Source: an archaeon (GTDB lineage Archaea; Iainarchaeota; Iainarchaeia; Iainarchaeales; CSSED10-239). Taken from it: a DNA stretch of 25,365 nt. Location: NCBI GenBank assembly GCA_035357435.1, contig DAOPNM010000006.1, positions 1 to 25,365 of the forward strand, written 5' to 3'. Each line of letters starts with the position of its first letter. The first letter of the stretch is position 1. Below the pieces are notes generated by a model. The model was given only the letters and a program-made list of their open reading frames with translations, had not been told where the DNA came from and did no database searches. The position numbers and the translations under genes were made by a program. Below, piece by piece: positions 1-10,214 of the stretch.

Positions 1-1203
1 ACCCTGTATCTTTATAATCTCTTTAAACTTAGATAGGGCTTGACCAGACAAAATTGTTTCTTTTGCAACTTTATAACCAGTACCTTCCTGTGCACCACCA
101 ACTAATTCTAATAAAGCACCTGCAATCTCACAACTTTTGTTTCCTAAATTATCAAAATGTTTTCCTTCTAATAATCTTAAAACCTCTCTTGCTTCTAAAG
201 ACGGCCCAAATGCCCTTCCACATGGTTCTTCACCATCAGTTAAAAGAGCTTTTGTTTTAATTCCTAAAGATCTTCCAATTAATATAAATTTCTTTGCTAA
301 TCTTTGTCCTTGTTCTTTATCTTTCACTTTAACATTTGAACCTATAGGAATATCAATAACTAAATAGGTAACCCCTGTTGCTTTTTTCTTTGAAAGAATA
401 GAAGCAATCATTAAACCTTCAGGGTTTATATGTAATGAATGTTCTATTCTAATAAAAGTGTTATCTACTGGAGAAATATCAACCTCTCCTTCCCAAGTAA
501 TAACCCCTTTTACTTGATCAATCATATGCTTTATTTCATCAACTTTAAAAGAAACAGGGGCTAACACTTCCATAGCATCTGCAGTTCCTGCTGCAGAACT
601 TATAGAACGAGAAGATGTTTTTGGAATATTATAACCAAGAGATGCAATTATTGGAACTATAACCATTGAAACTCTACCATTTATTCCACCTATAGAATGT
701 TTATCTAAAATTTCTTTCTTCCCAAAACTTAATCTGTCACCTATATCAATCATCGCATTACACAAAAAACCAGTTTCTTCTATATTTAATCCATTAATAT
801 ATAGTGCAGTAACAAATGCAGACAATTCTGTTTCTAAAATTTTATTATGTTTTACATCATCTATAATGGTATAAATTTCATCTTTCAAAAGAACATTGTT
901 ATTTATTTTTTTCAAAATATATTCAAGAGACTTAGGGTAAGGCAACAAACTCACTTTAAGTTCTTCTTCTGGCTTTAATCCCAAACTATTGGCAAGATCT
1001 TCAAATATACCAATATGATTAACATCTACATATTGGTCAGAAATATCTAAAATACATGTTGTCTTTAATCTATGGTCTTTAACTTCCAATCTACTTAATG
1101 GATATGCACCCAATAATTCTGCATTTTTTGAATTTAAAAGAGCAACAGGATAATTTGCTAAAATATTTATAATCTTTACTTTTAAACTAATTACACTTTC
1201 CAT
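1..1203 (-). CDS. deoA: AMP phosphorylase (thymidine-phosphorylase family); N-terminal 401 aa, 3' end runs off the window
   Basis: This gene is absent from the supplied ORF track because its stop lies beyond position 1. Reading the minus strand from the ATG at 1203..1201 gives an uninterrupted 401-codon frame down to position 1: MESVISLKVKIINILANYPVALLNSKNAELLG...DKHSIGGINGR...PKTSSRSISSAAGTADAMEVL...GPSLEAREVLRLLEG. The HSIGG and SSRxIxSAAGTAD motifs, together with the roughly 80-aa N-terminal extension, are typical of archaeal AMP phosphorylase. Confidence 0.8.
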   Translation of the reverse strand, partial: MESVISLKVKIINILANYPVALLNSKNAELLGAYPLSRLEVKDHRLKTTCILDISDQYVDVNHIGIFEDLANSLGLKPEEELKVSLLPYPKSLEYILKKINNNVLLKDEIYTIIDDVKHNKILETELSAFVTALYINGLNIEETGFLCNAMIDIGDRLSFGKKEILDKHSIGGINGRVSMVIVPIIASLGYNIPKTSSRSISSAAGTADAMEVLAPVSFKVDEIKHMIDQVKGVITWEGEVDISPVDNTFIRIEHSLHINPEGLMIASILSKKKATGVTYLVIDIPIGSNVKVKDKEQGQRLAKKFILIGRSLGIKTKALLTDGEEPCGRAFGPSLEAREVLRLLEGKHFDNLGNKSCEIAGALLELVGGAQEGTGYKVAKETILSGQALSKFKEIIKIQG

Positions 1204-1219
1204 AAAATAAATTCCCCAC

Positions 1220-1549
1220 TTATTTTTTTAAACTTTCAACCATTTGTTTTAAAATCTCTAAAGGCATAACCCCTACTTGTTGTTTAACAAGCTTTCCATC
1301 TTTAAAAAACAAGACAGTTGGTATTGACATAACATTGTATCTTTGAGAAATATCTCTATTTTGATCAACGTTTACTTTCAAACATACAACATCTTCATTG
1401 TCTTTTGCAAAAGTATCATATATTTTAGAAAACATTCTACATGGGCCACACCATTCTGCCCACATATCAACAATTACAATTCCTTTTTTATTAATTTCTT
1501 TATCAAACTCTTTTGCATCCGTTATTTCTTTTATATATTTACTACTCAT
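1220..1549 (-). CDS. trxA: thioredoxin
   Basis: 109 aa with a WCGPC active site (DMWAEWCGPCRMF) and a cis-Pro region (SIPTVLFF). The length is right for a thioredoxin fold. A GGTGAT Shine-Dalgarno lies 3 nt upstream of the ATG. Confidence 0.9.
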   Translation of the reverse strand: MSSKYIKEITDAKEFDKEINKKGIVIVDMWAEWCGPCRMFSKIYDTFAKDNEDVVCLKVNVDQNRDISQRYNVMSIPTVLFFKDGKLVKQQVGVMPLEILKQMVESLKK

Positions 1550-1552
1550 CTT

Positions 1553-1558
1553 ATCACC
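1553..1558 (-). promoter_or_regulatory. Shine-Dalgarno site of the thioredoxin gene
   Basis: Minus strand reads GGTGAT followed by AAG and then the ATG at 1549. Confidence 0.5.
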
Positions 1559-1583
1559 ACACCAAATTTTTAACTATTACAAA

Positions 1584-2630
1584 CTATAATAAAAAAATAA
1601 TTAATATTAAAATAATTACACCAATAATAATTAAAAGCAAATCTTTCCCAGAATTCAAACCAATATTCTGTGCCCATTCATTTAATTTTGAACTAGTTCT
1701 ATTTAAAAATGAAGCATTTGTATCAACAGAGGCAATCAAAACATTATCTGAAATATTATCAACACCAACAATAATTGGCTCTTGAGAAACATTCTCATCA
1801 GGAGAACTATTTTCAGAATTTAATGTATCTTGTTTTTTAACAACAACCAAAACATCTTTCAAATTATAGGTGTAATATTTATTAAATGCAACACAGGATA
1901 CAAAATAAATGTCTGGAATAACATTAATGTCTTTATTTAAGGAAAAATTAATATCAAATGACTTATTCCCTTTATATAAAATATTTACAATAATTTCTTT
2001 TGGGGCAATACAATTTATATCATAAATATAAGGATCATCAACATATTCTGTTAAAGAAATTATATCATAATCATTATTATTCAAAAGATAAACTATATTT
2101 CTAGAATAATTATACCCTTTCAATATTTTTTTTGCAGAATCTATTTCTGTTAGTGGAAATAAATTATTTGAATCTTTAGAAGTAATTGTTATATATTTAT
2201 TAGCAGTTTCTAAAACATTTCCATAACTATCATAAAGCTTAGCATAAATCTTTAAATTAACAGTATTATCTTTAAAATTTTTAGAAACCAAATTAAGTGC
2301 AATATCTGTATCCACTGTTGAAGTAAACAAACCATAATCTTTTGATAATTCAATTGACAAAGAACCATTTAATGGATTATCTGGATAAACATCTACAAAA
2401 TATTTCACTAATGTATTACTATATTGATTTGGTGGAAGATAATCTGAAGAAATATTCAAATATATTTGCTTAAACATATTTGGATACATATAAAAAACAT
2501 TATCCCCATAATCAGGAGAGGTTTTCAAAGAAATTGACAATGAAGAATATGCAAAAATATTTTGCATTAACGGGAACATAAAAAATAATAAAATTAACAA
2601 CAACACATATTTTTTTTGCATAACATTCAT
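1584..2630 (-). CDS. hypothetical secreted, C-terminally membrane-anchored surface protein
   Basis: 348 aa. The N-terminus has a hydrophobic signal-like segment (KKYVLLLILLFFMFPLMQNIFAYSS). The last 18 residues form a transmembrane helix (LLLIIIGVIILILIIFLL). The middle is a beta-rich, Asn/Tyr/Asp-rich ectodomain. I recognise no family. Confidence 0.6.
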   Translation of the reverse strand: MNVMQKKYVLLLILLFFMFPLMQNIFAYSSLSISLKTSPDYGDNVFYMYPNMFKQIYLNISSDYLPPNQYSNTLVKYFVDVYPDNPLNGSLSIELSKDYGLFTSTVDTDIALNLVSKNFKDNTVNLKIYAKLYDSYGNVLETANKYITITSKDSNNLFPLTEIDSAKKILKGYNYSRNIVYLLNNNDYDIISLTEYVDDPYIYDINCIAPKEIIVNILYKGNKSFDINFSLNKDINVIPDIYFVSCVAFNKYYTYNLKDVLVVVKKQDTLNSENSSPDENVSQEPIIVGVDNISDNVLIASVDTNASFLNRTSSKLNEWAQNIGLNSGKDLLLIIIGVIILILIIFLL

Positions 2631-2665
2631 ATTTATTAATTGCTTATCTATAAATATCTATAAAC

Positions 2666-2971
2666 TTAATCTTTTAAAATAGTATTTATTGCACTCAAAA
2701 CCTCTTTCAAAAGAACTCTTGCCACATCTTCTGAAATTTGATCTTTTATAAGAATTTTTAAAGAATTAAATATTGTGATCTTCCCATTTGAAGAATTAAC
2801 ATCTATAAAAAAAGGAGACCCATCTTTATCTAAATAATACCCTTTTTTTTGTAATTCCTTTGACAACATAGAAACATCTATTTTTTTTGAAAACCTTGGA
2901 TAAAATTCAAAACCAGGTGTAGATTTACAAGTGTCCATTATAAACATATCTTCAGATAACATAAATATCAT
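2666..2971 (-). CDS. hypothetical small alpha/beta protein
   Basis: 101-aa ORF in a tight co-directional array, 58 bp after the ATPase gene and 35 bp before the surface-protein gene. An AAGGT SD-like motif abuts the ATG at 2971, so the ATG at 2962 is an alternative start with better spacing. No motif recognised. Confidence 0.45.
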   Translation of the reverse strand: MIFMLSEDMFIMDTCKSTPGFEFYPRFSKKIDVSMLSKELQKKGYYLDKDGSPFFIDVNSSNGKITIFNSLKILIKDQISEDVARVLLKEVLSAINTILKD

Positions 2972-3029
2972 ACCTTTCTATAATATCTAGTAAATTATAT
3001 AATTAACCAATATTTAATTATATCATTAA

Positions 3030-5591
3030 TTATATCTTTTGCCCTAACACCCCGTCAATTACAATAACCTTCTCATTATTTGACTTATTTGTTAAAAATA
3101 TATTCCAAAGAGGCCAATAAATTTCTTCAAAAGAAACAAATTCTATATCTCCCCACAACTTTATTAAAAGCTCTTTTATTTTATTAATATCAAAAACAAT
3201 TTGTTCAACATCTGCCACATTCTCCTTTTTTAAGGGCAAACCATCTAAGGTCATTAACAATTTATGTTGAGCATCAAAAGGGATATCAAAAACATCTTCA
3301 TTAACTTTAAAATAATTCACTTTGTTTTTTTGAGAAACTGCTAAAATATTTTTACATTTAAATAAATCAATAGATGCTATAATGTCAGACTCTGAAAGAT
3401 TCAATTTCTTTTCTAAAACAGAAATTGGTTGTGGACTTTTCAGAAGATAAAGAATATCTAAATCCTTATCAGAAAACTCAGAAATTAAAGGGAAACCTTT
3501 TGACTCTTTAAAATGAATGCCTAAAAAATGTATAAATTCACCCGTGACTGAATCTATATAACAAGTCATTCTTTTAAATTGATCATTATCAAGATAAAGA
3601 TTATAACTTATTTTATAAATTAGTCTATACTTTAAAACAATATCTTTAATTTTCTCTTTAGATTGAAAAAAAAGACCTTTTGAAATACTTGCTTTTGCAA
3701 TATTTTGTATTTCATAATTATTTATTCTTAATGGCAAACAATATTTTATATTCTCTTTTAGAAGAACATGTTGAACTATTTCTTCTTTATTATCTAAAGG
3801 TTCTTCAAAAGTTTCTTTTGCATCCACATTCTGAGAATCAATATTTTTCACAGAATTCTGTGTTTTAAAAGAAAGAACATTTTTTATTAAAACAACATCA
3901 TTTGCTAAAAGTTTTTCTAAAACATCTTCAAACAAAACATTTGTTTTATATTTTGAATTTACAACATCCAAAATATCTTGAGCAACACTTAGTTTTAATG
4001 ATCCATTTTTTTCTAATTTTTCATAAATTAATTTATAAGCTATATTCAAAACTTGGGAATTACTTAATTTCTTTATATCTCTAATTGTTTCCATATCCCT
4101 TCCTTCATGTTGGCTAGCTCTTGGTGCAACTCTTAAAATAAATGCACGAGAGGTTTCTTCTGATCTGTCTCCAACTAAGGCTGTTGCAAATGGAAGCGTT
4201 TTTATAAAATTTGGATCTTTATATTCATTTGGAATAATTGCAGGCATCCTTTTTTGAATAGCATGAATATCATCATTAAAAATTAACTTATGACTAATCA
4301 AAATATCAACTTGAGAAAGAACCTTTGTATTTATTGCAGAAGGTTGTTGTGTTGCAAAAACTAACGAACAACCTGGTCTCCTACCTTGTTTGACATACTC
4401 AATTAATGCAGAACTTGCAGGAGTTTGTAAATTGCCAGCAGGAATCAATGTGTGTGCTTCATCAATATATAACCAAGTTGGAGGAATTTCTATTTCTAAA
4501 AGCTCCTCTGCATCCATCTCTTTTTTTGATAATTTTTTAATAGCTTCTTCTCTAGCAAGCATTTTTCTTGCAGAAAGTATTCTTCTTGCAAGAATACCTA
4601 TAACCAATGCAGTAATATTCTCTTCTAAAAGAGAAGTATCTAAAACGGTTAATTGCCCTTCTCTAGAAAGCTTACTCAATGGCGTACCAGAATCAGAAAA
4701 AATACCCCAAGATTTTGCAGCATCAAATCGTGAAGATAATGCCCTTATAGAATCTGGTTTATACCCTTTTTTTTGATCTAAAAAATCAGAAGCATTTTGT
4801 AAACAAAAAATAATGTCTTCTAAAGTATAATTATTTCCTTTCCCAGTAATTGATTTAACATCTTTTTTTTCCTGTGTTCCCCCAACTGTATACCCTTTTT
4901 TCACATAATCTATTGTCTTTTCTAACAACAAACCACTTGGACTAAATCTATCAATACCAAATGTAAGACACCAATCATCAACAGTTAACATTGAAGGAGA
5001 CATAGAAAAATAATCATCAAATGTTTCTTTTGAAACATTTTGTGACAAACCAAATGGTACAAACACTTTTAAATTTTTTACACCTTCTGGTTTAAGCCCC
5101 CATTCTTGTAAAATAGAAATTTCTTTTTTTTCTTTATTTGGAAACTTCATACTCCAAAATACACCGACAGGGTCTACAACAATTTGACCAATATACAGAT
5201 TATTTTTAGACAACTGTTCTGCAATAACTCCTAAAACATAACTTTTACCAGTTCCTCTTGCACCATCTAAAAAAATAACATGTGGATTAAGACCGTCTAA
5301 ATAAACCAATTTATTTTTTTGGTCTTCTTCTGCAACTTTACCAATAAGTGCATTTCCAATATTACCATATTGTTTAAGAACACTTTTCTTTTTTCCAATA
5401 TATACACAATTGGGATCTGTTTCTGACTCTAAAAATTTAAGTTCTGGCTTAATTTTTTGAAATTGCTTAGAAAGGTTTTCTGTAGATGAAGATGAAGCTA
5501 TTGATGACGATAATTGTACATCTTTTGAAGAACTATTTTCTGTATCCTCAAAAAAATCGTTTTCTGTACTTTTTGAATGTTTAATTACCAT
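3030..5591 (-). CDS. HerA/FtsK-superfamily (DUF87/COG0433-like) P-loop ATPase with a roughly 350-aa C-terminal extension
   Basis: 853 aa. Walker A is GARGTGKS (aa 110-117, nt 5241-5264). Walker B is WLYIDEAH (aa 373-380). The post-Walker-B block RRPGCSLVFATQQPSAIN and PRASQHEGR are typical of HerA-like ATPases. The N-terminal 60 aa are Ser/acidic low complexity. From about aa 505 to 853 lies an extra region with two winged-helix-like segments and two related beta-rich modules. Confidence 0.8.
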   Translation of the reverse strand: MVIKHSKSTENDFFEDTENSSSKDVQLSSSIASSSSTENLSKQFQKIKPELKFLESETDPNCVYIGKKKSVLKQYGNIGNALIGKVAEEDQKNKLVYLDGLNPHVIFLDGARGTGKSYVLGVIAEQLSKNNLYIGQIVVDPVGVFWSMKFPNKEKKEISILQEWGLKPEGVKNLKVFVPFGLSQNVSKETFDDYFSMSPSMLTVDDWCLTFGIDRFSPSGLLLEKTIDYVKKGYTVGGTQEKKDVKSITGKGNNYTLEDIIFCLQNASDFLDQKKGYKPDSIRALSSRFDAAKSWGIFSDSGTPLSKLSREGQLTVLDTSLLEENITALVIGILARRILSARKMLAREEAIKKLSKKEMDAEELLEIEIPPTWLYIDEAHTLIPAGNLQTPASSALIEYVKQGRRPGCSLVFATQQPSAINTKVLSQVDILISHKLIFNDDIHAIQKRMPAIIPNEYKDPNFIKTLPFATALVGDRSEETSRAFILRVAPRASQHEGRDMETIRDIKKLSNSQVLNIAYKLIYEKLEKNGSLKLSVAQDILDVVNSKYKTNVLFEDVLEKLLANDVVLIKNVLSFKTQNSVKNIDSQNVDAKETFEEPLDNKEEIVQHVLLKENIKYCLPLRINNYEIQNIAKASISKGLFFQSKEKIKDIVLKYRLIYKISYNLYLDNDQFKRMTCYIDSVTGEFIHFLGIHFKESKGFPLISEFSDKDLDILYLLKSPQPISVLEKKLNLSESDIIASIDLFKCKNILAVSQKNKVNYFKVNEDVFDIPFDAQHKLLMTLDGLPLKKENVADVEQIVFDINKIKELLIKLWGDIEFVSFEEIYWPLWNIFLTNKSNNEKVIVIDGVLGQKI

Positions 5592-5922
5592 AAATATTCA
5601 TAATATATTTAATAAAAAAGAAATATATACATTTGCTTTTTTTTAAAAATGTAAATGTATTACATAAACATAGTGTATAAAATAAAATAAATAATTTTTT
5701 CTTTCTTAACCAAGTATATTTAGAAATATTATCAAATATATATACTTATTAACCATTATTAATAAAGATGACTTTATGAAAGCATTATTAGATTTACCTC
5801 AAAATAATTTTAGTTAATATTTTTAGAAGATTAGTATAAAACTTGGTATATACCTATTTCATAACAAACTCTATGCCAAATAAACTAAAAATTATGGAAA
5901 ACAAAAGACAACAATACAAAAA

Positions 5923-6951
5923 TTATTTACTTCTTTTTGTAGCAATTATTATGTCCCTTACTTTATTTCCAGGGACATTTGCATTTATTAACCCTAATGC
6001 AACATCGTCCACACTAGCACCTGCTTTAAACATTGCAGATGCAACAGTATATGGATCTATCCCACATTTAAGTAGTGCGGTTGTTTCTTTAGATGGCCTT
6101 ATATTTGCATCAAGAATTGCCTTTGCAATTTTTGGAAGGGTAACATTATTTTCAATAAAACCCTTATTTATATCTAATAAATTAAAATTAACAGCAATAA
6201 GTCCTTTTGCTGTTTTATTAATATCTATACCTGAATCTTTTATACACATTTTAATAATAGATGGAACATTATAATGCATTACATTTAAAGTTTTAATAAT
6301 ATCAGAAATAGGCACTTTTAAAATATTCAAATTTCTAACAATATTCTCAATGGGAATTCCGTGATCAACCATGGCATTTACTATATATAACATATTAACA
6401 TTTTTTGAACTTAACATACCTTTTAAAATAACAATATCAGTTACACCTGGTAAATCAATAACAGCATCTATGATATCTCCTGGTAAACAATGATGCTCTC
6501 GCATAATTTTTATAATCTCTTCAGGAGAGATATTTTGTTTAAACAATACATTTGCAACATCATTAACTTTATTAAGTTTTATACCTACATCAACAATTTC
6601 AGAAATGGTATACCCTTCTTTTAATGCAAGAGAAAGAATAGATTCAAAATTATAACCTAAATGAGATAAATCTTCTAATGGCAAAACTTTAATTAAATCT
6701 TTTAAAAAAATGCCTTTTGTATATAACTCACTAGCATTTAATTTAAAACCTAAAAGAATCTCAGAGGGCTTATTATAAAATCGTATTTGATCAATTAAAG
6801 AAATTAGCTCTTCTCGTTTTAATGTATGTGGATTTATTTTCTTAAACTTAGGTTTCTTTTTTAATTTGCTTAAGCCACTCTGTAGTATCTCTTTTTTAGA
6901 TACTGGTTTTATATGCAATGGATATTTTTTTGGTTCTTTTCTAAATGCCAT
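5923..6951 (-). CDS. hypothetical helical-repeat protein (about 14-residue repeat), paralog 1
   Basis: 342 aa with a Lys-rich N-terminal tail (KLKKKPKFKK). It shares a conserved block with the neighbouring gene (LLGFKLNASELYTKGIFLKDLIKVLPLEDL). About 16 tandem units of the form [VI]x4[IV]x3[LM]x3[GN] follow, for example IDPYTVASAMFKAG, ASVDDVALGLINAN and VPGNKVRDIIIATK. Confidence 0.7.
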   Translation of the reverse strand: MAFRKEPKKYPLHIKPVSKKEILQSGLSKLKKKPKFKKINPHTLKREELISLIDQIRFYNKPSEILLGFKLNASELYTKGIFLKDLIKVLPLEDLSHLGYNFESILSLALKEGYTISEIVDVGIKLNKVNDVANVLFKQNISPEEIIKIMREHHCLPGDIIDAVIDLPGVTDIVILKGMLSSKNVNMLYIVNAMVDHGIPIENIVRNLNILKVPISDIIKTLNVMHYNVPSIIKMCIKDSGIDINKTAKGLIAVNFNLLDINKGFIENNVTLPKIAKAILDANIRPSKETTALLKCGIDPYTVASAMFKAGASVDDVALGLINANVPGNKVRDIIIATKRSK

Positions 6952-7034
6952 AATATTCTCATTTAAAATAATTAGATATAACTTTTTTATTATAAATAGT
7001 TAAGGAAGGAAAAATATAAAAACGTTTATTAAAA

Positions 7035-8045
7035 CTATTTATTTGAAAAAATATCTCTGATTGTGTCTTTATCCACATCTGCATTAAGTAAACCTAATGC
7101 AATATTGTCAATATTGGCACCAGCCTCTGACAAATAGCGTGTCGTAGAATAGGCATCTATCCCTAATTTAATAAAAATTTCTGCCAATTTACTTTCTTTT
7201 ACTTTTGAAGACAACATTGCTTTTGCAACAAGTACAGGTGACACTCCGGCTCTTAATAATGACCTTGTTGTTTCAAAAACAGAATATTTAGAATAAAGCA
7301 TCACTTTTGCAATAGTTGAAGGAGATTCAGAAACAGACAACAATGTTTTTGAAATAGTTTCTGCATCAATATCTATATTCTTCATCACATCAACTAAATT
7401 TTCTAAAGGTACATTAAAAGAAGCCAATTCTTTTGTAATTTCTATTAAATCATAATTATTAAAATATAAATTAGAGAAAATATCATAAACTTTAACTTTT
7501 TTTAACTCTAACAAACTTTTAACAAGTACATGCAACTTAACTTTGTTTTTTACTGCACCAATTGTTTCATATAAAGAGACATTATTTTTTAACATTGACT
7601 GAATAATTTCCTCTAACTTAATCTTTTGTGCCAACAATGCACTTGTGGCTTTATCTAATTTTTTATACCTTGTTCCAAATGAAATAACGTCATTTATGTT
7701 TTTATTATTATTTAATTTTAAAGACAACTGTGCAACTGATTCAAAATCAAAACCTAATTTATATAAATCATCTAATGGCAAGATAGAAATTATATCTTTT
7801 AAATAAATACCTCTTGAATACAACTCTGCAGCATTTAATTTGAACCCCAATAACATCTTTGATGGATTTTTAAGTTTACTTGCTTGATCTAAGATAGCTA
7901 TCACATCACGACGTGTTAATTCTTCTGGTTTAAGTATTTTTAGACCTTTATTTTGTAAAGGCTCACTCTTTTTTTTAAACTCCTCATGTTTTAATCGCAC
8001 AGATTTGTGCATTTTTTTTCTTTCATGTGGCAACATATTTATCAT
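7035..8045 (-). CDS. hypothetical helical-repeat protein (about 14-residue repeat), paralog 2
   Basis: 336 aa, clearly paralogous to 5923-6951. Shared blocks are LLGFKLNAAELYSRGIYLKDIISILPLDDL and the C-terminal GANIDNIALGLLNADVDKDTIRDIF. The 14-residue periodicity is the same. The start is uncertain, with in-frame ATGs at 8045, 8036 and 8012. Confidence 0.7.
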   Translation of the reverse strand: MINMLPHERKKMHKSVRLKHEEFKKKSEPLQNKGLKILKPEELTRRDVIAILDQASKLKNPSKMLLGFKLNAAELYSRGIYLKDIISILPLDDLYKLGFDFESVAQLSLKLNNNKNINDVISFGTRYKKLDKATSALLAQKIKLEEIIQSMLKNNVSLYETIGAVKNKVKLHVLVKSLLELKKVKVYDIFSNLYFNNYDLIEITKELASFNVPLENLVDVMKNIDIDAETISKTLLSVSESPSTIAKVMLYSKYSVFETTRSLLRAGVSPVLVAKAMLSSKVKESKLAEIFIKLGIDAYSTTRYLSEAGANIDNIALGLLNADVDKDTIRDIFSNK

Positions 8046-8890: not shown

Positions 8891-8973
8891 CGCAGAGGAT
8901 GGGATTTGAACCCATGTAGTCGTGAGACTCCAGCTCTCAAGGCTGGTGCGTTTGGCCACTCCGCCACCTCTGC
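8891..8973 (-). tRNA. tRNA-Ser (anticodon UGA), class II with a long variable arm, no encoded CCA
   Basis: Minus-strand fold: GCAGAGG-TG-GCGGAGTGGCCAAACGC-A-CCAGC-CTTGAGA-GCTGG-AGTCTCACGACTAC-ATGGG-TTCAAAT-CCCAT-CCTCTGC-G. This gives a 7-bp acceptor stem, a 5-bp anticodon stem, a 7-nt loop with anticodon TGA, a 14-nt variable arm and a T-loop TTCAAAT. It is a GC-rich island in AT-rich DNA. Confidence 0.93.
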
Positions 8974-9061
8974 TTTATTTAAAATTGGAATTGATATAAA
9001 CATAAATTGAAATAAAACATTTATATACTATTTTATTATACAAAAACAAAAATTAACAAAA

Positions 9062-9409
9062 CTATCTAATTATACTCCCCTCTTTTACAGGCACACTTGG
9101 AAACAAAAGTGCATCAACATCTTCATCTCCTATTGCTAAAATCATTCCTTGACTTTCTAAACCCATTAATTTTCTTGGTTCCATATTTATAATAACAGGA
9201 ACTTGCTTATTAATTAAATCTTCTGGTTTATACTTTGTGCCAATCCCTGCAATAACTTGTCTTTGAAAACTTCCAAAATCAATTAATAATTTTAATAGCT
9301 TTTTACTATCTTTTACAGTTTCTGCATTAATAATTTTTCCAACTCTTAAATCTAATTTACTAAAATCATTATAACTTATATTTGGTTTTAGATAATCTAA
9401 TTCTGTCAT
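9062..9409 (-). CDS. tRNA-binding OB-fold protein (Trbp111 / CsaA / MetRS C-terminal-domain-like)
   Basis: 115 aa from the ATG at 9409; the track's 9412 start is a TTG one codon upstream. The sequence FSKLDLRVGKIINAETVKDSKKLLKLLIDFG...RQVIAGI...PEDLINKQVPVIINMEPRKLMGLESQGMILA is the classic EMAP/Trbp111 tRNA-binding domain pattern. A GAGGA SD-like motif lies upstream. Confidence 0.85.
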   Translation of the reverse strand: MTELDYLKPNISYNDFSKLDLRVGKIINAETVKDSKKLLKLLIDFGSFQRQVIAGIGTKYKPEDLINKQVPVIINMEPRKLMGLESQGMILAIGDEDVDALLFPSVPVKEGSIIR

Positions 9410-9435
9410 CAATTATTCCTCTTTAACATTAAACA

Positions 9436-9518
9436 CGCAGGAGACGAGATTCGAACTCGCGTAGTCGTGAGACCCCAGCTCTCCAAGCTGGTGCGTTTGG
9501 CCACTCCGCCACTCCTGC
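9436..9518 (-). tRNA. tRNA-Ser (anticodon GGA), class II, no encoded CCA
   Basis: Minus-strand fold: GCAGGAG-TG-GCGGAGTGGCCAAACGC-A-CCAGC-TTGGAGA-GCTGG-GGTCTCACGACTAC-GCGAG-TTCGAAT-CTCGT-CTCCTGC-G. The D arm, anticodon stem and variable arm are nearly identical to the UGA isoacceptor. The acceptor and T stems differ. Confidence 0.93.
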
Positions 9519-9647
9519 ATTTTGTTTAAGTTAGTTGACTGGTAAATATAATATATCTATAAAAGTATATAAATATATACAACCTATAATTACACATCTA
9601 AAATAACTTAAATTAAAAAAACAAAAGTCTTAAAAAAATAAAAAACA

Positions 9648-9731
9648 CGCAGGGAATGAGATTCGAACTCATGTGGTCTTAAAGACCCTGGTTTTCGAGA
9701 CCAGTGCATTTAACCACTCTGCCATCCCTGC
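9648..9731 (-). tRNA. tRNA-Ser (anticodon CGA), class II, no encoded CCA
   Basis: Minus-strand fold: GCAGGGA-TG-GCAGAGTGGTTAAATGC-A-CTGGT-CTCGAAA-ACCAG-GGTCTTTAAGACCAC-ATGAG-TTCGAAT-CTCAT-TCCCTGC-G. The variable arm is 15 nt. Confidence 0.92.
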
Positions 9732-10214
9732 ATAAATAAATTGTGAAAAGAAAACCATAAAAAGAGGAATTTTTATAAAACATATACAAAAAAAAAGAGG
9801 CAAAACAATTTTAAAAAAAATAAACTAGAAACAATCTATTTAAAAAAACAAATTTCAAGATGAGGGAAACCTTACACATTATTTGCCTTACAAACTTGGT
9901 GAGTTTATTCCCTCAACTTTCTTTCATTAATTTATGATGCATTTTCTCACAACCTTTTTTATCACTCCCGGATGTATATCCTTTTACAAAGACTCCAAAA
10001 AATCATTCAATATCCATTCTGGAAAATCTTTGGAATATCTCAATCCGAATATATAAAATAATTAGAGAATATATATACTGTCTAAGTTTAAATGTACAAA
10101 AAAGAACATGAAAAAATAAATAAACACACAAAAAAATAATCACCATAAAAAATAAGGTAAAAACAGAAAAACCATACAAAATAATTAAACAAAATGAATA
10201 TTTAAAAAAACACA

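Follow-up and report, generated by a model that had tools for sequence, protein, structure and literature searches.

Tandem archaeal genes for proteins built of an unnamed, 14-residue alpha-helical repeat

Two adjacent genes and the anatomy of their products

The DNA considered here, hereafter ‘the window’, is a stretch of 25,365 nucleotides from an archaeon of the lineage Iainarchaeota (contig DAOPNM010000006.1 of assembly GCA_035357435.1). At issue are two neighboring minus-strand genes, here called p1 and p2, the products of which carry long arrays of a very short tandem repeat. A first-pass annotation, made from the letters of the window without database searches, had described two co-directional genes, of 342 and 336 amino acids, lying 83 bp apart, and open reading frames (ORFs) of that size and placement are indeed found. 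The genes, along with the parts of their products, are as follows, with positions those of the window, helices those of structural models (AlphaFold2), and model confidence given as the predicted local distance difference test (pLDDT):

5923..6951, minus strand: gene p1, an ORF of 342 amino acids
6817..6951, minus strand: p1 basic, disordered N-terminal tail, residues 1-45; net charge +13, isoelectric point (pI) 10.6; pLDDT <50 at residues 1-37
6661..6816, minus strand: p1 conserved head, residues 46-97; four short units, with helices at 62-68, 73-78, 83-86 and 92-97
5926..6660, minus strand: p1 array, residues 98-342; 17 units of ~14 residues, with boundaries taken from the AlphaFold2 helices
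6952..7034, minus strand: spacer between p2 and p1, 83 bp and AT-rich; runs of T follow the p2 stop, and TATA-like motifs (TTTATA) precede the p1 start
7035..8045, minus strand: gene p2, an ORF of 336 amino acids
7914..8045, minus strand: p2 basic N-terminal tail, residues 1-44; net charge +6, pI 10.0; pLDDT <50 over most of residues 1-35
7758..7913, minus strand: p2 conserved head, residues 45-96; four helix-turn units of ~10 residues, with helices at 61-67, 72-77, 82-85 and 91-96
7038..7757, minus strand: p2 array, residues 97-336; 17 units of ~14 residues, with AlphaFold2 helices every 13-15 residues

That p1 and p2 are paralogs is borne out by BLASTP (32% identity over 304 residues, E 8e-48), and the blocks that the annotation had quoted as shared are present in both, i.e., LLGFKLNA.ELY..GI.LKD.I..LPL.DL toward the N-terminus and GA..D..ALGL.NA.V....RDI at the C-terminus. 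Public copies of both proteins, from metagenome-assembled genomes (MAGs) labelled Candidatus Diapherotrites archaeon or simply ‘archaeon’, are named ‘hypothetical protein’, and a DPANN origin of the genes is thereby confirmed. For p2 there are three in-frame choices of start, the ATGs at 8045, 8036 and 8012, which give products of 336, 333 and 325 amino acids, and all three are used in public annotations.

The Lys-rich N-terminal tails to which the annotation had drawn attention are likewise real, at least as judged by charge: over the first 45 residues this is +13 in p1 and +7 in p2, the two highest in a set of 20 ORFs from the window, with the others lying between -6 and +5. Neither protein displays a transmembrane segment or a signal peptide, with hydropathy over 19 residues (KD19) reaching a maximum of 1.44.

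The spacer between the genes could, going by its letters, supply a terminator along with a promoter, a reading to be held tentatively because the genome is only ~25% GC. An ORF of 143 amino acids (5843-6274, plus strand) runs antisense to p1 at its 3' end; being hydrophobic, of low complexity and without support, it most likely is a frame artefact of the repeat gene.

A repeat of one helix per 14 residues

Periodicity was assessed by autocorrelation of BLOSUM62 scores over 60 lags, with 1000 shuffles for comparison, of which the 95th percentile of the maximum z is ~3.2. At a lag of 14 residues z is 6.7 for p1 and 6.1 for p2 as whole proteins, and 7.5 and 5.7, respectively, for their repeat regions alone. 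The p2 repeat region peaks as well at multiples of that lag (z of 5.7, 5.1, 6.0 and 4.0 at lags 14, 28, 42 and 56). The earlier claim of a very short tandem repeat therefore stands, the better lag-14 values of the two proteins (6.1 and 7.5) lying well above the shuffle ceiling of 3.2.

The AlphaFold2 models, built for p1 from a two-sequence alignment and for p2 from a single sequence, have a pLDDT of 86.6 and a predicted template modelling score (pTM) of 0.75 in the case of p1, and 88.7 and 0.77 in that of p2. Both models display the same layout, that is, a low-confidence basic tail of ~45 residues, then one 11-residue helix, then the head, and then the array. The head consists of four helices of 4-7 residues at a spacing of ~10 residues. 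The array consists of 17 helices of ~10 residues, which start every 13-15 residues, are separated by 4-residue turns, and in both paralogs are modelled at pLDDT >90. The models consequently are confident ones of all-helical repeats, in keeping with the repeat solenoid that the annotation had predicted. Bearing on the question of elongated stacking are the pTM of 0.75-0.77 and Foldseek probabilities of 0.87-1.0 to designed helical-repeat proteins. As to copy number, the annotation's ‘about 16’ has to be amended even though the repeat itself holds, there being 17 units of ~14 residues in addition to four shorter ones of ~10 residues.

Cutting the two arrays at the model helix starts yields 34 units, with a consensus of AGVDLEDIAKALLK, and with this the previously proposed [VI]x4[IV]x3[LM]x3[GN] agrees. 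Position by position, the preferences are G/N at 2, V/I/Y at 3, I/V at 8, A/I/V at 9, A/G at 11, L/M at 12, and L/I at 13. The hydrophobic positions (3, 5, 8, 9, 12 and 13) would, as modelled, form the core of the array, and the within-unit pattern of charges resembles ordinary helix capping. All 13 prolines of the arrays fall at unit positions 1-6 and none at 7-14, and prolines so confined fit helix N-caps and rule out a continuous coiled coil. A 28-residue, two-helix hairpin was considered as the repeat as well and is ruled out, as there is no odd/even signal between units; the structural repeat, that is, is one helix rather than a pair of them. The array, then, is a statistically supported tandem repeat with one helix and one turn per unit, placing it in the alpha-helical tandem-repeat class. 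As shown by computation, each protein as a whole is soluble and made up of tail, head, 17-unit one-helix array and C-terminal cap.

From a different perspective, the array might not be a folded repeat at all but instead a coiled coil of two heptads per unit, or a series of amphipathic lipid-binding helices, with the AlphaFold2 solenoid an artefact. Fourteen is, after all, twice seven. Two unrelated, coiled-coil-like proteins with perfect 14-residue periods (P0039 and P0040, with LDELNKTLESKNIR and RTHKYNI..LV.AL) furthermore reach E ~1e-6 against the p1/p2 profile, and the idealised repeat of another protein, P0027, when searched against PDB sequences, returns designed coiled coils and methyl-accepting chemotaxis protein (MCP) signalling domains, i.e., among spurious coiled-coil and ferritin matches. 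The helix of p1 and p2 nonetheless is broken by Pro, Gly or Asn every 14 residues, that is, at every unit boundary, with the prolines in the turn; the hydrophobic positions do not form the a/d pattern of heptads; and the modelled helices are a mere 10 residues long, at high confidence in both paralogs. A two-heptad coiled coil was rejected on these grounds, and that the array should be something other than a folded repeat is hardly credible.

The two arrays can also be compared with each other unit by unit. The mean BLOSUM sum between p1 and p2 units is 16.5 for units of the same index versus 3.1 for units of different index, and as same-index units are so much more alike, the 17-unit array must predate the gene duplication. 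Indeed, p1 and p2 both retain all 17 units in register. Best conserved between them are units 1, 4, 13, 16 and 17 (5-9 of 14 residues identical), with units 8-12 the most diverged (0-2 of 14), which matches the annotation's description of conserved ends about a diverged middle. Strain-level copies from many metagenomes, at 99.0-99.9% DNA identity, differ in no more than 10 codons, and the ratio of nonsynonymous to synonymous change (dN/dS) is uninformative for these copies because the changes are too few.

Known families, relatives and neighboring genes

The annotation could name no family for p1 and p2, and this outcome persists across Pfam, NCBIfam, PHROGs, PADLOC, PDB sequences, and Foldseek against both PDB and BFVD. 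Pfam and NCBIfam scans give noise only (E ≥0.007), and scans of PHROGs and PADLOC give no match for either protein, that is, no membership in a phage or anti-phage defence family. Relatives are absent as well from viral DNA, as represented by IMG/VR viral contigs and GenBank phages. Searches of all PDB sequences by phmmer and hmmsearch, with p1 and with the family profile, return nothing meaningful. With Foldseek, both models match at E ≤1e-3 in the PDB only de novo designed helical-repeat proteins, with template modelling (TM) scores ≤0.39 and a root-mean-square deviation (rmsd) >8 A. Against BFVD nothing is found at E 1e-3, the best weak matches being giant-virus ankyrin proteins (E ≥0.011, TM ≤0.41). 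Nothing relevant was found in the literature on a 14-residue helical repeat, and the classes covered by a review of alpha-solenoids (ANK, ARM, HEAT, Sel1, PPR, PUF, TAL and TPR) include none with so short a unit (PMC11514114).

It is possible, instead, that p1 and p2 belong to a known family, such as ankyrin, helix-hairpin-helix (HhH), ARM or RecX-like proteins or tandem three-helix bundles of UBA or helix-turn-helix (HTH) type, which is so diverged that profiles miss it. In favor of this are summed, sub-threshold matches of relatives to UBA, HTH and RecX three-helix families, which are many; the match of p1 itself to UBA_9 (E 0.16); the ankyrin-repeat proteins topping the weak BFVD matches; and the fact that three units of 14 residues give the 42-residue period of ARM, 42 being also a peak lag of p2. 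In none of the Pfam matches, however, is there an individually significant stretch, and the period is 14 rather than 33, 42 or 50, with p1 lacking a consistent three-unit super-period. TM moreover is ≤0.41 and rmsd >8 A against every library entry, and with a pTM of 0.75 a single continuous fold is likelier than beads of three-helix bundles. A missed known family therefore is quite unlikely.

Individual candidates fare no better. Ankyrin is rejected for its 33-residue period, along with the lack of an Ank match in Pfam at E ≤10 and the low TM of the BFVD ankyrins. TPR, PPR, PUF, HEAT, ARM, TALE and mTERF are rejected as Pfam and NCBIfam give no matches and p1 has no super-period of 28 or 42 residues that holds consistently; TM to PPR, PUF and ARM structures is ≤0.28. 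For UBA and tri-helical HTH domains, the p1 match to UBA_9 amounts to 12.3 bits (cutoff 27), and the partial matches of relatives include zero significant stretches. The faint likeness to HhH motifs that the annotation had suggested also fails, as the second G of the G-h-G hairpin, which would fall at unit position 4, is Gly in 0 of 34 units and no HhH family of Pfam is matched even at E ≤10.

Relatives are few. A word-indexed homology search returns only the clusters to which p1 and p2 themselves belong, and a peptide-pattern scan of GTDB genomes returns no relatives. HMMER, run exhaustively with a profile against 1.84 billion cluster representatives, returns 23 proteins at E ≤1e-3, including p1 and p2 themselves (P0001 and P0002). 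The sole full-length relative is P0029, a protein of 295 amino acids from an ‘archaeon’ MAG, which has the head in common and fewer units; the head indeed is the most conserved block in an alignment of p1, p2 and P0029. Most other matches are long proteins with runs of a 14-residue unit, AGYSxxQIAxALKx. GTDB genomes scanned at the DNA level for QIAxALKxAGY yield in addition 40 loci, of which two, L026 and L008, are truly periodic; the other 38 were discarded as incidental single motifs lacking 14-residue periodicity, e.g., in response-regulator-like sequences. Carriers of the unit are:

P0028, P0030 and P0034: 14-mer proteins of Omnitrophota
P0051: LamG protein of Saprospiraceae, with 14-mer runs
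P0042: protein of Micrarchaeota, with 14-mer runs
P0044 and L008: TrbI/VirB10-like, with 14-mer runs
P0037: eCIS-core protein, with 14-mer runs
L026 (Candidatus Micrarchaeota MAG WALN01000035.1, 1-3190, minus strand): at least three tandem, co-directional paralogs, of 242 amino acids, of 320 amino acids, and a third running off the locus
L008 (Gammaproteobacteria MAG, 2-1804, minus strand): TrbI/VirB10-like

These define a wider repeat type, rare and without a name, of the form AG[YVI]xxxx[IV]AxAL[KL]x. The p1/p2 unit resembles it in period, register and consensus, with AGVDLEDIAKALLK and AGYAANQIASALKS matching at shift 0 only: in profile-profile comparison with the P0027 unit the score is +2.6 at that shift versus -8 to -17 at others, and held in common are A1, G2, I8, A9, A11 and L12. 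More generally, p1 and p2 display the period, the register and the positions (A1, G2, h3, I/V8, A9, A/G11, L12) of the type. The heads of the wider type nevertheless cannot be aligned with those of p1 and p2, and its bacterial examples differ in being long, secreted or periplasmic, and multi-domain. Because the unrelated P0039 and P0040 reach E ~1e-6, periodicity alone can be seen to inflate HMMER significance for a p1/p2 query, and homology of the weaker matches, as distinct from convergence, is not established.

Closest in kind are the Micrarchaeota proteins of L026, which are similar to p1 and p2 in small size, basic termini and tandem paralogy, and which BLASTP links to p1 and p2 in the repeat region (E 1e-6 and 4e-8, respectively). 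Each has a basic head of ~85 residues, His-rich units of the form GY[D/N]HK[K/Q]IAEALKH[V/I], and a KKVKKK tail. The heads are highly conserved among the paralogs, and the arrays differ by insertions or deletions of ~1-2 units (12-28 residues). The DNA repeats at this locus also yield long spurious ORFs in other frames.

In the TrbI/VirB10-like proteins (L008, and P0044, which is of DotG/IcmE type) the 14-residue unit fills the region between an N-terminal membrane anchor and the TrbI domain, suggesting that there the repeat is a periplasm-spanning rod. This raises the possibility that p1 and p2 as well are passive rods, spacers or protein-protein adaptors that have no role involving nucleic acids, the paralogs being length or surface variants which bridge protein partners. 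Consistent with such a role are the long secreted LamG, eCIS-core and lipase-like proteins that also carry the unit, the arrays of P0029 and of the Micrarchaeota paralogs, which vary in length in steps of whole units, and the near-neutral charge of the repeat domain. A passive rod, however, leaves unexplained both the strongly basic, disordered tails and the conserved head of those DPANN proteins that stand alone, and p1 and p2, with exactly 17 units in register, do not themselves vary in length. Such a role is a possibility to be taken seriously, if one that we consider less than probable.

Turning to the genes nearby, the minus-strand order is HAD hydrolase, p2, p1, a 331-bp gap, HerA-like ATPase, a 101-amino-acid ORF, a 348-amino-acid ORF, and thioredoxin. 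The middle part of this order is:

1584-5591, minus strand: HerA-like ATPase along with the 101- and 348-amino-acid ORFs, directly downstream of p1

The ATPase is 853 amino acids in length, with DUF87 and HerA_C domains and a C-terminal extension of 370 residues. The two ORFs match no family; the 348-amino-acid one was considered as a NurA and rejected, there being no support in Pfam, NCBIfam or the PDB. Together, these three genes could, on their sequences, form a module built around HerA, as yet uncharacterised, that serves in defence or in the processing of DNA.

Also in the window are three tRNA-Ser genes (anticodons TGA, GGA and CGA) within 850 bp (8891-9732, minus strand). Among them is a tRNA-binding-domain protein (9062-9412), and a CCA-adding enzyme lies just beyond.

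A longer contig of the same locus (L001) displays an Mre11-like phosphoesterase ~7 kb beyond p1. At the P0029 locus (L007, 5517-13765) Rad50 lies 51 bp upstream of P0029, PriS and Gins51 come after it, and a canonical HerA lies 3.5 kb downstream; no Mre11 was seen adjoining Rad50 there. An Mre11-like gene is located ~1 kb from P0042 of Micrarchaeota. A double-strand-break repair gene thus is present within ~7 kb at three of four DPANN loci, where chance proximity of this sort, roughly estimated for a genome of ~1 Mb, would be ~6% per locus. This is suggestive, that is, a lead rather than evidence of function.

Probable function and comparison with known systems

We favor a reading, one that is moderately probable, in which p1 and p2 are real genes for unnamed alpha-helical 14-residue repeat proteins that serve in the cytoplasm as rod-like binding scaffolds, presumably tethered to DNA. 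The binding role and the DNA link here are what we infer. In terms of mechanism, helix-turn units would be chained end to end, with all helices equivalent, giving a soluble cytoplasmic rod or solenoid which, if the models are right, may act as a scaffold for binding. The conserved head and cap could supply a constant contact, possibly pairing p1 with p2 or docking a partner, and the diverged central units could supply binding surfaces specific to each paralog. The basic tail, in turn, might anchor the protein on an acidic ligand, of which DNA is the most plausible. Association with DNA is hinted at by that tail along with the loose but recurrent proximity to Mre11, Rad50 and HerA genes.

A number of observations weigh against such a scaffold, or at least against its link with DNA. 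The repeat domain is at most modestly basic, with a net charge of only +1 in p1 and +7 in p2, and neither the whole-protein pI of ~9.4 nor the lysine content is out of the ordinary for an AT-rich genome of 25% GC. At no exposed position of the unit is a basic residue conserved throughout the wider type. The bacterial proteins with the repeat (TrbI/VirB10-like, eCIS-core, LamG and lipase-like) are secreted or periplasmic, and such extracytoplasmic use favors a general function as rod or spacer over DNA binding. The HerA-like ATPase next to p1 is an atypical HerA, with its best PADLOC match to mad8 (E 5e-16, over the full profile). The triple-paralog locus of Micrarchaeota (L026) contains no Mre11, Rad50 or HerA gene, and gene context generally is heterogeneous, not conserved gene for gene, and with the proximity noticed post hoc. 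AlphaFold2, lastly, is prone to high confidence on idealised helical repeats.

A more specific role than that of a scaffold would be as a sequence-reading binder of nucleic acid in the manner of TALE, PUF or PPR proteins, with each unit contacting one or a few nucleotides by way of exposed, variable positions and with p1 and p2 differing in their DNA or RNA targets. A modular array with conserved caps and a diverged center is what might be expected of such proteins; the tails are basic; DNA repair or replication genes are found near several loci and tRNA-related genes nearby in the window; and designed PPR-RNA complexes are among the weak Foldseek matches of p2. Identity between p1 and p2 nevertheless is spread over all 14 unit positions, without the one or two hypervariable positions that a ‘code’ would display, nor does the wider repeat type have a basic or polar contact position in common. 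The near-zero charge of the p1 repeat domain, the low TM scores to PPR, PUF and ARM, and the occurrence of the repeat in extracytoplasmic bacterial proteins tell against reading as well. We regard it as rather improbable. Somewhat more doubtful still is a broader proposal, that p1, p2 and the Micrarchaeota paralogs together are DPANN-wide one-helix solenoids which serve either as partners of Mre11-Rad50-HerA or as programmable readers of DNA or RNA.

Returning to the favored scaffold, its interest extends beyond this one locus. In at least two lineages of DPANN, and independently in each, genes of an uncharacterised family have undergone tandem duplication, and as the genomes of these lineages are tiny, the paralogs so retained are unlikely to be idle. 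Bacteria use the same 14-residue unit again, as a spacer, in proteins of secretion systems and in toxin-like ones. Were the link with Mre11, Rad50 and HerA to be true, then p1 and p2 would count as a new accessory factor in the processing of DNA ends by archaea, and were they instead programmable readers, then theirs would be the shortest modular nucleic-acid-recognition repeat known.

Among known systems, arrays of HhH motifs, e.g., the tandem (HhH)2 domains of Methanopyrus topoisomerase V, consist of many short helices and bind DNA non-specifically. They are similar to p1 and p2 in being archaeal, in their short tandem helices, and in a Gly-hydrophobic turn, but the G-h-G hairpin by which they are defined is absent from all 34 p1/p2 units.

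Three-helix bundles of HTH or UBA type share with p1 and p2 a glycine in the turn, a hydrophobic residue after it, and then I/V-A and L along a single face of the helix; the p1/p2 unit presumably resembles as well the generic helix-turn of such bundles, G-h-S-x-x-E-I-A-x-x-L, which in LuxR and sigma-70 region 4 reads G-x-S-x-x-E-I-A-x-x-L. It is to this group that the partial, sub-threshold matches of relatives point (UBA_DHX29, UBA_3, UBA_9, RecX_HTH and RepB_primase_C). HTH and UBA domains, however, are closed and of 40-55 residues, whereas in p1 and p2 the helix-turn is iterated 17 times, with the helices equivalent. The family libraries scanned contain no model devoted to this unit.

Nearest in overall character are the alpha-solenoids (ANK, ARM, HEAT, TPR, Sel1, PPR, PUF and TALE), which like p1 and p2 consist of tandem helical units about a periodic hydrophobic core, have conserved terminal caps and variable internal units, and are all-helical with, in the case of p1 and p2, a predicted non-globular fold. 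The units of the named alpha-solenoids, however, are of 30-47 residues and two to three helices, versus 14 residues and a single helix in p1 and p2. As modelled, the 14-residue unit appears to be the shortest found, with no structural counterpart in the PDB and in an extremely rare family. If the models are right, then this is a natural, single-helix repeat of under half the length of any named alpha-solenoid unit, and would add to the catalogue of repeat folds a new geometry, one that might serve as well as a compact and evolvable scaffold for protein design.

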